A DNA stretch of 64,000 nt from Eledone cirrhosa (lineage: Eukaryota). Positions 15,102 to 36,900 of the stretch are shown here, piece by piece. Numbering within the stretch: position 1 is the stretch's first letter; each line of letters starts with the position of its first letter. The translations under genes were made by a program, and so were the position numbers. Below the pieces are notes generated by a model. The model was not told the origin of the DNA. It worked only from the letters and a program-made list of their open reading frames with translations, and did no database searches. The stretch is from the NCBI GenBank assembly GCA_964016885.1, contig OZ024740.1, positions 334,242,001 through 334,306,000 of the forward strand. Reading direction: 5' to 3'.

Positions 15102-15195
15102 ACCCCTTGAGAAGATCGGCTATTTAAATACCAGGATAAATTTTCATTTAGTCCAGAATTAGCCGTCGAAACGGCTTGAGCTCAGCTGTCGGGGT
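15102..15195 (+). ncRNA. Type I hammerhead ribozyme, U3-A8 variant (family A)
   Basis: ACCCC-TTGAGAA-GAtCGGCTA...TAGCCGTC-GAAA-CGGCttgagctcaGCTG-TC-GGGGT; 5-bp stem I, long stem II, extended stem III, predicted GUC cleavage after 15190. Confidence 0.78.
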
Positions 15196-15544
15196 CTTAC
15201 TGGTTCCTATATATATATATATATATATATATATATATATATATATATATATATATATATATACATATATATATACATATATATATATATATATATATAT
15301 ATATATATAAATACATATATATATATATATACCTACATACACACATATATATATACATATACATATATACATATATACATACATATACATACACACATAC
15401 ATACATGTATATATACACACATATATATATATATATATATATATATATATATATGTATATATACACATAGATATCCACGGTAAGTTGTGGGGTCCACATA
15501 CACACATACATACATGTATATATATATATATATATATATATATA

Positions 15545-16153
15545 TGGTGGCTGCCAACTCGTTTTCGAGTACGGCCACTACTTTATATCCATGTAGGAGA
15601 ACCCCTACCGATGCGCTGAATGAGTGTGACTTTTTAGTCCAGCCAGCGACTTTAAAACTCTGGTACAAACACTACACTTGTGACAATTATTGACACATAG
15701 TGCTTTACCTTTGGTACCATGTGACGACAAGTGCAGAAAGATCTCCAGATACAAAGCAATGCCTGTGCCGTGAAGCTTTTATAGTGAGCAAAGGCACTGC
15801 ACAAAGCCAGTCCCACTCTCTTAACCAAGATGATATTTACCAAAAAGAAGAACAAGTCAACATCATTGGATACCATCAGAGTTGCAGGTGTTATATCAGA
15901 GTTTTCCTTCTCCTAGAATTCTGCCTTGACAAAGGCTAAGGGGTCATCTCACCCGGTGATTTTGGATGGCCATTGATTCTTAAGAGCTCCTTTGCCCTTT
16001 GACAGGTTTTGTTTTTAGTCCTGCAGGATGTCCAAAGTCACCCTCCTCACCAAGAAACCTTGGTGGGGTTGCCAGTTTAGTGGCCAACGACCCGACCATG
16101 GGACAGGTTGTACTGGGATACATGTTACCAGTAGCACCAACTGGTGACCTGAC
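15545..16153 (-). mobile_element. RTE-clade-derived non-autonomous element (5' UTR fused to 3' end)
   Basis: Near-identical to 47472-48083 and 16993-17508; contains ggagaaggaaaactctgatataacacc (RTE-type 5' UTR motif) and a remnant C-terminal C2H2 finger ([15 protein letters not shown]) followed by a ctcgaaaacgag hairpin tail running into (TA)n. Confidence 0.7.
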
Positions 16154-16204
16154 ATAATATATATATATATATATATACATATACACACATAAATGTATAT
16201 ATAT

Positions 16205-33593: not shown

Positions 33594-36540
33594 CTATTGG
33601 GGTGATAACCCGTTTAGTTTTGGTTTAAATGTGTTAAGGAATAGATTTTCTTTGTTTATTCTTTGTTGCTGTGTGAACGAATCTGAGCACTTGTAGAAGG
33701 GGAAGATTTTAAAGTTGGGTAGTGTCATTCCTGCGCAGTTCGCAATATGGCTGCTCAAGGGGATTTTTCTTGTGCTAGCTTCCCGGATTTGTTGGCGGTG
33801 GATGGTCATTCTTTTGCGTAATGTATATTGCCCGTCTGTCCTATGTAGTTGTGTTTGCACCCACCGCAAGTTATTGCGTAAATCAAGTTCTCCGAGTTGC
33901 AGGTGAAATTGTTTTTTACTGTAAATGTTTGGCCATCTTTAAATGTAAATTTGTGTCCTTCAGTGAGGTAGAGGCACGTTCCACAGTTTGTTCTACCACA
34001 TTTGGTAACTGTAGGGTTGAGGATTGGTTTGGGTATATTTGGTCCAGTGAGAATGCGTTTTAGTGATTTGGGTTGTCTTTTACTTTTAAGGATCTTGTGT
34101 GTTTCAAGAATAGACTTCATTTTTACATCTTTAAGTAGGATGGGGAGGTTTTTGTGTAGGTGATCAAACATTTCGGTATTTCTGGGGTTGAAAGTGGATA
34201 CATATGGCAGGGTGTTGAGTGTGGTTTTCTGTTTTGGATTGTTAAGTTGATGGGGATTTAGGTGTGTTGCCCTGTCTATTCCATTGTTGATTATTTCAAG
34301 TGGAAAGGCTCTTAAGATAAGGGTGTCTTTTAGTTCCTTTAGTCTTTGCTCCCGTTTAGGTGGATCCGATACTATGGTACATATACGTTTGGCCAAATTG
34401 TAAGGAATGTTAAGTTTTGTATGTTTTGGGTGACTTGATGTGAAAAAGAAGTATTGCTTGGAATCTGTGGGTTTATAGAATATATCTGTATCTAATTTCC
34501 CGTCTATTACAGAGATGAGAATATCCAAGAAGGCTAATTCCCTGGGATTGGATTCCATTGTGAATTGTATGTTATTATCTATGTTGTTTATCATGTTTTT
34601 AAACATAGTGAGTTCATGTCTTCTTGCCATAGGATAAAGCAGTCGTCTAGATATCTTTTCCAATTGGCTTTGAGGTGTGTGTGGAAAGAGTCTCCAAATA
34701 AAAGAAGGGACTGACTGTATATTTGTTGTTCATGGAATCCCATGACTAGGTTGGCATATGTGTGTGCTACTTTCGTGCCCATTGCCGTACCTGATACTTG
34801 TCTGTATGTTGAACCATTGAATGTGAAGTAGTTATTTTGTAAGATAAAGCGGAGTCCGTCAGTGATAAAATCTTTGTTGATGCGTGTCGGTATTTCTGAT
34901 GGGTGTGTGTTAAGCCAGTATTGGACTGCTGTTAGTCCATAGTTGTGGGGTATGTTTGTGTAGAGGTTTATTACGTCAAAGGAGACAAGAATTGTATTTG
35001 CACTTACTGTTTTAGGGAGGTGTTTCAGCATGTCAAGGTCATCTCGTATGTAGCTCTGTATATGTTGTAGAAAGGGTTTCAGTAGGATGTCCAGAAAGTT
35101 GCTAAGTCTGTGGGTTTCACATGTAGGGCCTGCTATAATTGGCCCGAGTTTTAAGTCTTCTGGTGGTGTTAGTTCAATGTAATTGTTGGTTGAGGTGTCA
35201 CATGCATCGTTTATGGGTTTACATTTGTGGAGTTTCGGTAAGCCGTAAAAAGAGCTTGTATTGCATTTGAAGTGGCTTATATAGTTAAACTCTTTTGTGG
35301 TTAAGCTGTTGCGGTATTTATTCAGTAAGGTCAAAAGGTTCCCCATTGTTTTGGTGTGTTTGTAGTTTTCTGTTTTTTCATAGTATGTGTTGTTTTCTAA
35401 AATGTTAAGTGCGAGGGTCCTATAGTAGTCCGTATTCATAATGACAACAGTACTGCCTTTATCGGCTTCTTTGATAGTTATCTCAGGGTTCTTTCTAAGT
35501 GTGAATAATTCTTCCCATTCGTGTGTAGATAGGTTTGATTTCGTGTGTTTATTTGTAATTTTTTCATAGGGAAAGTTGGTGATGTGTTCGCAGTACGTGT
35601 CCAGTGCTTTATTTCTTCCCTTTTGTGGGCAGAAATTGCTTTTATTTCTAACCAGTGATTCGTCTTCAGTGTTGGTGTCGTTGTGGAAGAATTCCGTTAG
35701 TCGCAGCTTTCGGCAGTATTCCATGATGTTATCCTTCATTTCGGAGAAGTTTGGTTTACGTGGTGTAGGTGTAAATTTCAGGCCCTTACTTAAAATGTTG
35801 ATTTGTGTGTTGGTTAGAGGTGTCTTTGAGAGGTTGATTATTTTTGGTTTCTCCTCAGGGGGGGGGGGAATATCCTGGTATTTCATGCTTTTCCCTAAAA
35901 AAGGAATGTAGTTTTGTGTGTGATTATATTTTGTTGGTCTGTTGCGTGTGGGTCTGTAGTTTGTTGTTTCATGAGGGTGAATGTGATGGTGGGGGTGGTA
36001 TGTGTTGTGGTTGTTGATGAGCAAGGGTTCTGTTGTTGGTTCATGTGGTCTGGGTGCGTTATTTCTGTGGTACAGAGTGTTGAGGTTGGGGGGTTGTCTT
36101 TTGTTGGATTGAGGGTGATGTCTGGTGTGGTTGTGGGTAAGTTCTGTTGTGATTTCAAGTGGTCTGGGTGGATTTCTTCTGAGGAATGTGGTGTGTGTGT
36201 TGTGAGTTGGATCTATGTTATTTCGTCGTTGGTTTATGTAGGGGGCATTTCTACGGAAACCTGTGTTGTGGTGGTTGGGTGTGTTTCTTTTGGTGTAGTT
36301 GGCCGTATTTGGTTTGTGTTGGTGGGGTATGTGCCTGTGTTTAGTGTGTGTTGGGTTTGGTGGTGTAAATGTGTCTGTTGTAGTTCTTGTTATGTTCAAA
36401 TGCTTTATAAAGGGGTTACCTGTTTGGTGCGTCCTTTTAAAGTCTTCTTCATATTTGAGGAACCAGTTTTCGGATTTTTCACACCGTTTAAGGGAAATAA
36501 TTTCTGCATTCTCGCAGTCCTGTTTCCACGATTTGATTAT
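33594..36540 (-). pseudogene. PLE2 ORF1 remnant + RT + GIY-YIG (two frameshifts)
   Basis: GLKFTPTP, IKEADKGS, FYGLPKLHK, FDVINLYTNI, QVSGTAMGT, RYLDD (602-aa ORF); LAFLD, FYKPTD, CGRTNCGTC, NLIYAITCGGCKHNYIGQT (285-aa ORF); LRKRMTIH..KENLFL..PKLN (91-aa ORF). Confidence 0.92.
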
Positions 36541-36852
36541 ATAGGTGTAAGTGCACTAAATCCATTTCTATCAATCTCCCCTCTCCTACCTACCACAGGA
36601 AATATATGTATGTATATTGCTTCCACCCCCTCACTGACCAGCAGCTGGCCATCTGGCCATTGCTAAATTTGACCTTTATAAAATAACCCACACCCCAAAT
36701 AACTTCTCATTCACTACCAGAAAGGCACCCAGCAGTCAACGAGCTGCTACCAAGATGAAAACTACTGTGAAATCCCACAATGAATTTTATACTTGAATTT
36801 TCAAATCTCAAATTTTAACTCTTCTTATTATTAATTTTTCTTAATATTAATC

Positions 36853-36900
36853 AACATTTGAAAAGATGGCTTTTGCAGACCCATCGAAACCGGTCATTTT
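36853..36900 (+). ncRNA. Minimal hammerhead, U3-A8 variant; ORF-sense copy at 32512-32559 (-)
   Basis: aacAT-TTGAAAA-GATGG(cttttgcagac)CCATC-GAAA-CCGG-TC-ATttt; GUC triplet, ACCGGT stem III, weak stem I. Confidence 0.62.

Follow-up and report, generated by a model that had tools for sequence, protein, structure and literature searches.

Hammerhead ribozymes in which the Watson-Crick pair between core positions 3 and 8 is U3-A8 instead of C3-G8 are a compensatory natural variant already described in the literature. Perreault et al. 2011 (PMC3088659) reported natural U3-A8 hammerheads and cited covarying pairs as active in vitro, and Cervera & de la Pena 2014 (PMC4209133) found U3-A8 in the Cercyon Penelope-like elements (PLEs) of Schistosoma mansoni, where a changed descriptor gave about 1,300 matches and minimal motifs were described as having low, dimer-dependent activity. 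In the Anolis Poseidon element, catalytic hammerhead mutants had no effect on insertion in vitro, and cleavage by the PLE hammerhead requires the protein (Frangieh et al. 2024, PMC11167929). Here we analysed a 64,000-nucleotide stretch of Eledone cirrhosa DNA (assembly GCA_964016885.1, 3.0 Gb; contig OZ024740.1, forward-strand positions 334,242,001 to 334,306,000), hereafter the window, which is AT-microsatellite-rich animal DNA of 34.6% GC and carries U3-A8 hammerhead motifs in three PLE families, designated family A, PLE1 and PLE2. We consider it probable that these are PLE terminal-repeat hammerheads with a U-A 3-8 pair, that the swap took place separately in Neptune-type and Hydra-clade elements, and that cutting by them is likely slow.

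The cores were found where the sequence-only reading had placed them, with TTGAGAA at 15107-15113 in family A and TTGAAAA at 27357-27363 in PLE1 and 36858-36864 in PLE2, each followed by stem II, G-(A/C)-A-A, stem III and a GTH triplet, and the predicted cuts fall at 15190/91, 27387/88 and 36895/96, respectively. Each motif has an inverted partner in the window on the minus strand (13918, 21659 and 32554), and the PLE2 motif at 36858 belongs to the repeat that is inverted and antisense, its sense counterpart being the one at 32554 (-). A relaxed descriptor that allows C13, composed after the motifs had been seen, gave six U3-A8 matches in the window against a mean of 0.017 and a maximum of 1 in 60 block-wise dinucleotide shuffles. 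Three helices surround the core and stem I is open, as in type I hammerheads, an assignment that is strong for family A; the stem I adjoining the core consists of only 2-3 A-U pairs in PLE1 and PLE2. The palindromic stem III claimed for all three motifs holds for PLE1 and PLE2, which carry an ACCGGT palindrome, but family A has a 6-bp hairpin with a palindromic loop. Judged against a published consensus hammerhead core that includes A13 (PMC3088659), the 3-8 pair is U3-A8 in all three window copies, and U4 G5 A6, A9, G12 A13 A14, A15.1-U16.1 and H17 are all present in family A and PLE2. PLE1 departs from this consensus by C13 instead of A13, and its U17 belongs to this copy only, the family state being A17. 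The minimum-free-energy (MFE) fold of the family A motif is the hammerhead three-way junction, with a stability not above that of shuffled sequences (z -0.61). The Rfam scan gave 169 matches at E<=1, and the 150 of them that were listed, microsatellite noise, included neither a hammerhead model nor the canonical C3-G8 copy at 46555. The presence of three U3-A8 hammerhead motifs is confirmed, and the PLE1 motif is hammerhead-derived and of doubtful activity.

The host elements have terminal repeats, tandem or inverted, with a tail and a hammerhead inside, as is characteristic of PLEs. The PLE1 protein matched Pfam RVT_1 and GIY-YIG, and the PLE2 protein matched RVT_1 and was 53-56% identical to the endonuclease part of PLE1; the two elements share 64% DNA identity over 2 kb and 54-60% protein identity. 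Their translations carry GLKF, DKG and a CX4CxxC linker, in line with the description of the Neptune clade in PMC8557442 (GxKF, DKG, CX2-5CxxC and microsatellite targets). We designate both as 'Neptune-type' on this motif description, and not as Neptune, because Nematis carries the same linker. A more intact PLE1 copy elsewhere in the genome (L194) shows an upstream frame of about 455 aa, without a Pfam match, that overlaps the reverse transcriptase (RT) frame (L194:4204-5571; window 23013-23681) and may be a distinct, frameshifted ORF1 or, alternatively, an N-terminus that is broken. For family A, an intact open reading frame (ORF) was found in locus L187 (786 aa stop to stop, in a unit of 3,118 bp), encoding RWR, DKT, YRDD, CxCX5C, CxxC, CxH and a YIG-type motif, and the targets are (TA)n. 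The text on the Hydra clade in PMC8557442 gives an RWK-type motif, DKT, a CxCX5C linker, a CxxC and CxH endonuclease and (TA)n targets, all shared by family A except that its first motif has R where the clade has K. By this motif description, family A is placed among the Hydra-clade PLEs, its homologues carrying no clade names. The family A protein had no Pfam match at E<=0.1, had 2,219 full-length relatives among 8,000 scored candidates, and was 21% identical to the PLE1 protein (E 1e-7).

The motifs resemble those of Schistosoma Cercyon, as described in PMC4209133, in being type I, in lying in PLE terminal repeats, in U3-A8 and in the palindromic minimal stem III; both occur mostly as single dispersed copies with inverted pairs nearby and were found only via a changed descriptor. 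They differ in number (about 29,000 pattern matches here, with PLE1 (C13) and family A additional to these), in hosts (the Neptune-type and Hydra clades), in having mismatch and C13 subfamilies, and in the long-stem form of family A. Family A shares with the Hydra-clade PLEs of Craig et al. 2021 (PMC8557442) the protein motifs, the (TA)n targets, the C-terminal endonuclease and a unit length of about 3.1 kb, and in both the hammerhead lies close to the 3' end and has a genuine stem III. The Hydra hammerheads given in File S2 of that paper are C3-G8 throughout; that of family A is U3-A8, its loop II measures about 37 nt and its loop III is palindromic. The hammerheads of PMC3088659 have the same compensatory pair but are few, and A13C is not among the variants in the sections of that paper available to us. 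Anolis Poseidon (PMC11167929) has two RT starts downstream of the hammerhead, like the family A ends 17 and 97 nt past the cut, but it has a C3-G8 core, belongs to another clade and is an element whose activity was measured. Non-LTR retrozymes (PMC7229834; bioRxiv 10.64898/2026.07.22.740005) likewise carry type I hammerheads, in tandem units that measure 310-466 bp in this genome; unlike these, the three studied motifs sit in protein-coding PLE families and not in tandem arrays. The novelty that had been claimed for U3-A8 PLE ribozymes was overstated, as both the variant and the descriptor are in Cervera & de la Pena 2014. Our literature searches gave neither A13C nor repeated 3-8 switching, and no U3-A8 in PLEs of the Hydra clade or of cephalopods, though earlier papers and supplements may include mollusc U3-A8 or C13 motifs.

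To obtain the family states, genome-wide patterns were used that left position 3 open (C or T) and position 8 open (A or G), and per-family proportions were taken from the first 100 matches by position, which is not a random draw. PLE1 and its sister family together gave 24,887 matches (control 0), with U3-A8 in 100/100 of those listed. Family A gave 4,861 matches (control 3), of which 80 of the 100 listed were U3-A8, 20 C3·A8 and none had G8, and a second Hydra-type family gave 1,823 matches (98 U3-A8 and 2 C3·A8 among 100 listed). For a PLE2-like family with 444 matches, the 100 listed comprised 90 U3-A8, 7 U3·G8 and 3 C3·A8, and PLE2 itself was U3-A8 in 41/41 rows, these being best matches and hence biased towards the query. 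C3-G8 was not seen among the 100 listed matches of any patterned family. U3-A8 is therefore the majority state in each family, and not a copy-specific decay from a CTGANGA consensus. N7 was variable (G, T, A, C) whereas positions 3 and 8 were mostly constant.

A pattern for minimal motifs gave, for the paired states genome-wide, 62,180 C3-G8 matches (control 4,013) and 29,404 U3-A8 matches (control 2,214), and for the unpaired states 2,150 C3·A8 (control 1,296) and 2,046 U3·G8 (control 1,256). In an alignment of 14 motifs, hand-picked from pattern lists already sorted by the 3-8 pair, 93.7% of cells were paired, the 3-8 pair was U-A in 8, C-G in 6 and unpaired in 0, and the covariation score was 0.87 against 0.22 for shuffled and at most 0.17 for slid motifs. 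The genome counts and the 14 motifs bear out the proposed covariation of the 3-8 pair across families. By the same pattern count, a search based on CUGANGA would miss about 29,000 motifs, as had been expected; the U3-A8 pattern for minimal motifs itself misses PLE1 (C13) and family A.

The sequence-only reading had further proposed one lineage of U3-A8 PLE ribozymes in three sequence-divergent families. Family A is indeed distant from PLE1, but PLE1 and PLE2 are related and are counted once because of their common ancestry, and with two further U3-A8 families they form one group of 51-71% protein identity. Since all Hydra-clade hammerheads given in File S2 of PMC8557442, the octopus entry included, are C3-G8, the U3-A8 of family A would have arisen by a change of its own, barring the exchange of a module. 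The second U3-A8 Hydra-type family has a 4-bp G-C stem II and a CGTACG palindrome (L094:2308, L259:2183, L314-L351). In a 16-row protein tree, whose rows include 11 of 120 listed homologues, this family was sister to the C3-G8 element of the window (92/94), and monophyly of the two U3-A8 Hydra families was rejected (p-AU 0.022). The C3-G8 element has C3 at 51935, with a damaged triplet, and C3 at 46555, in an intact motif, and its 5' repeat starts 4 nt before the core. A single lineage is thus contradicted by the RT phylogeny that was to check it, because U3-A8 occurs in Neptune-type and in distant Hydra-clade elements and is interleaved with C3-G8 among Hydra-type proteins. As the second U3-A8 Hydra family is sister to a C3-G8 element, the 3-8 pair likely changed state at least three times in this genome, in what the tree suggests were three gains, or two gains and a reversal.

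Several candidates were rejected in the course of this analysis. The ORF of L345, used in an earlier tree (p-AU 0.025) as the protein of a C3-G8 motif, is separated from it by a TA run and another repeat, and the ORF of L331 was dropped from the Hydra tree as mislabelled (69% nucleotide identity to L348). The PLE2-like family was considered to hold both C3-G8 and U3-A8 subfamilies, and 0/100 listed matches were C3-G8. C3-G8 motifs with a CCGG palindrome, considered as close relatives of PLE1 and PLE2, gave 107 matches against 158 in the control, and those resembling the PLE1 sister were apparent junction artefacts or lone mutants. Two further repeats were observed. A small C3-G8 family (L301:4006, L302:3992, L218), with no ORF nearby, has stems resembling those of the fourth Neptune-type U3-A8 motif and is a possible relative of it in the ancestral state. 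A Hydra-type PLE repeat (L345:5725 and 2612 (-), L066, L123) has a C3-G8 first half, GAAT for GAAA and no clear stems, and may be either a degenerate or an unusual hammerhead, kept in 5 copies.

Selection on the pair, which had been deduced from the double change, is retained as long-term pairing across families, but strict selection was overstated, as C3·A8 and C13 subfamilies have been amplified; selection on the core is loose in the short run. The following observations weigh against the reading that we prefer. The C3·A8 copies of family A, which lack a Watson-Crick 3-8 pair, form one clade (11/11, support 0.977) in a tree of 66 copies kept of 81; editing of A8 from A to I was considered as a possible way in which C3·A8 might be rescued. 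C13 was present in 39/40 PLE1 rows and in 41 of 100 listed matches of PLE1 and its sister, which itself retains A13. By extrapolation from the first 100 listed matches, the C3·A8 subfamily has about 1,000 copies and the C13 subfamily about 10,000. In sequence runs, T-to-C at 15107 made up 24% of contig depth in X1 and 5% in X5 (contigs of unrecorded kind), a depth that says nothing on expression or cleavage, and position 27379 showed no change at a 3% threshold in two runs; runs X4 and X6 had no PLE1 cover. A change of A13 strongly lowers hammerhead activity. Because the C3·A8 clade was amplified and PLE1 is fixed for C13, a broken core is compatible with spread. The same weight attaches to the hand-picking of the 14 motifs, to the counts, which are of copies or chosen families and not of independent events, and to the protein tree, which consists of single, partly frameshifted copies (X at breaks) with long branches and in which the group tested by p-AU had been named once an earlier tree was known. 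Pairwise mutagenesis of one type III hammerhead (PMC9901934) gave strong rescue only for the C3G/G8C swap, and other mutants of the 3-8 region had low activity; this result fits U3-A8 being weaker in some scaffolds.

Predicted folds add to these points. The family A subfamily of the window is the youngest (mean pairwise distance 2.7% vs 5.9-8.0%) and carries two changes, A10.2 and U16.3, that favour the hammerhead fold, with a median predicted P(junction) of 0.53 (n=18). P(junction) was at most 0.07 in 44 family A copies without A10.2 and was 0.19 and 0.60 in the two copies with A10.2 alone (2/66 copies could not be scored), and detailed folding of three copies from other subfamilies gave P 0.52-0.99 for a competing hairpin over G12-A14. 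Because the other subfamilies misfold in prediction, monomer cleavage of family A, which had been suggested from its long stem II and extended stem III, is plausible only for the young subfamily in the window. For the minimal motifs, the palindromic stem III of a dimer was predicted with P 0.99 for PLE1 and its sister but with P 0.04 for PLE2, whose dimer is mostly misfolded in the prediction, and predicted dimer formation does not free the PLE1 core, which a hairpin still sequesters.

The ends of insertions bear on the role of cutting. The direct arm of the family A insertion stops within (TA)n 17 nt after the cut, and 59 and 60 of 145 family A ends lie 17 nt and 97 nt after it, respectively; the PLE1 3' terminal repeat stops in (TA)n 115 nt past the predicted cut 27387/27388, as do PLE1 insertions in general (17/17). 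With ends 17, 97 or 115 nt past the cut, the insertion template must have spanned an uncut or re-joined site. Of 77 family A 3' ends at loci picked without regard to this family, 54 start within loop II (28-55 nt before the cut), 4 extend as far as the core and 3 start no more than 5 nt from the cut; across the same loop II stretch, contig depth (contigs of unrecorded kind) rises about 25-fold. This loop II end cluster (window 15136-15163) may mark either the start of a transcript or a stop of the RT. Loop II ends are often short inverted pairs without a core (6884-7054, L054, L125, L275), and a similar cluster 60-80 nt before the cut was seen in PLE1 (10/17) and its sister (16/27).

On these grounds we propose that a single intermediate state, either C3·A8 (mismatch) or U3·G8 (wobble), preceded each completed switch, that AT-biased mutation helped, and that long-term selection on the 3-8 pair led to fixation of the new one. 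Judging from published PLE work, the minimal motifs of PLE1 and PLE2 would work either as dimers, joined via the ACCGGU palindrome, or with assistance from the element protein, while in the young family A subfamily a monomer could suffice for folding and cleavage. These slow, assisted ribozymes would serve to trim tandem read-through RNA, being dispensable in each round of insertion and kept over long times. That cutting is not needed per insertion follows from the ends downstream of the cut and from the amplified C3·A8 and C13 subfamilies, and cutting is likely useful to these elements but not required for every jump.

A different role for the fold is conceivable, though we regard it as improbable: the motif may be a folded protein-binding or RT-positioning element in which the 3-8 pair is structural and cleavage in vivo is negligible. 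It would account for insertions ending 17, 97 or 115 nt after the cut, for 5' ends that are not enriched at the cut (3/77 within 5 nt), for the amplified C3·A8 and C13 subfamilies, and for the observations of Frangieh et al. (PMC11167929) that no reads ended at the cut and that catalytic mutants had no insertion effect. Against it, 54/77 unselected family A 3' ends lack the core half; the minimal RNA of the Anolis element lies downstream, and conservation of G12, the 3-8 pair, A15.1-U16.1 and H17 across distant clades fits catalysis better. The existence of a single PLE lineage with U3-A8, or of one U3-A8 module recombined between PLE clades, is still less probable. PLE1, PLE2 and the two families related to them (51-71% amino-acid identity) do have a common CCGG palindrome, and several U3-A8 motifs lack the extra base after A9 seen in most C3-G8 motifs here, but family A is only 21% identical to PLE1, the Hydra-type and Neptune-type stems, loops and flanks are dissimilar, and the two states are interleaved in the Hydra-type tree.

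Least probable of all is neutral decay, in which AT-biased mutation made U3 and A8 in a few masters whose amplification mimics covariation. In its favour, the GC content of the window is 34.6% and each of the two changes is a GC-to-AT transition; independent lineages are few, and mismatch and C13 subfamilies have spread. Drift would, however, leave many whole families C3·A8 or U3·G8, and each of these states is only about 800 above control, in lists made up mostly of single mutants of paired families or chance matches; moreover, the stems covary across families, and the youngest family A subfamily gained two changes favouring the hammerhead fold. A bolder reading, which we hold only tentatively and think unlikely, is that U3-A8 is a repeatedly selected brake, with the family A RNA 5' end perhaps inside loop II and the youngest subfamily re-tuned for monomer action. 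A fast ribozyme would sever the template from the RT start 17-115 nt downstream of the cut, hence several PLE clades would have converged on a slower core; with the 5' end in loop II, only the read-through 3' copy would hold a whole ribozyme.

Table 1 Coordinates of the hammerheads and PLE features in the window.
Feature	Position	Strand	Remarks
Family A type I hammerhead	15096..15206	+	MFE fold is a three-way junction, P(junction) 0.53
Family A stem I	15096-15106 with 15191-15195 and 15202-15207 region	+	
Family A stem II, long loop	15114-15122/15160-15167	+	
Family A G12-A15.1; stem III, palindromic loop	15168-15171; 15171-15189	+	
Family A insertion, direct arm	14171..15207	+	5'-truncated, non-coding 3' part only; 92% to L187, no ORF match
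Family A inverted arm, same insertion	13738..14166	-	U3-A8 core at 13918; longer tail, 97 nt after cut
Older family A copy	18958..19372	-	Decayed core (G5 -> A)
Short inverted pair	6884..7054	.	3' half of family A hammerhead without core
PLE1 inverted terminal repeat	21515..21883	-	U3-A8, C13 hammerhead at 21629-21659
PLE1 ORF remains	23013..26337	+	Frameshifted; RT, C-terminal GIY-YIG, Neptune-type motifs
PLE1 3' terminal repeat	27133..27501	+	Minimal hammerhead 27357-27387, U3-A8, C13, ACCGGT palindrome
PLE2 3' (sense) terminal repeat	32371..32866	-	U3-A8 hammerhead 32517-32554
PLE2 ORF remains	33612..36555	-	RT, GIY-YIG; 54-60% amino-acid identity to PLE1
PLE2 inverted terminal repeat	36546..37041	+	U3-A8 minimal hammerhead 36858-36895, ACCGGT palindrome
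Hydra-type PLE, decayed and interrupted	46466..51943	-	C3-G8 hammerhead in both terminal repeats; 41% to family A protein

Other repeats were noted in the window and elsewhere in the genome. At 53240-54571, a GIY-YIG fragment (53550-54029) is flanked by inverted repeats and likely represents another PLE family; the relaxed scan gave no hammerhead in this region. The head of a dispersed repeat at 46092-46149 (+) and 61051-60924 is tRNA-like (Rfam tRNA, 30.5 bits), likely a short interspersed element, and 1598-2407 (-) gave a weak zf-RVT match (E 0.008), likely a remnant of a long interspersed element. Two families of high-copy repeats lie in (TA)n, one at 15529-16156, 16978-17555 and 47457-48084, the other at 38525-38936, 41895-42402, 58682-59145 and 60525-60734. 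Outside the window, L256 (G000:C1:6519946-6521556) consists of 316-bp units in tandem, and every unit carries a U3-A8 hammerhead with a longer stem III; in its dispersed relatives stems II and III covary, and it looks like a non-LTR retrozyme with U3-A8. Large tandem arrays with C3-G8 and units of 310-311 and 466 bp (L134-L145, L128-L129) are likely non-LTR retrozymes, and some C3-G8 tandem arrays switch strand mid-array.

In this genome, about a third of the minimal motifs would escape hammerhead censuses restricted to CUGANGA. The variant itself was known, and a U3-A8 form is here added to the Hydra clade. A single genome thus offers a natural series of C3-G8, U3-A8, C3·A8 and U3-A8 with C13 in spreading transposons, together with a contrast between subfamilies predicted to fold as monomers and subfamilies predicted to misfold, and this series bears on whether a PLE profits from its hammerhead or simply carries it along.

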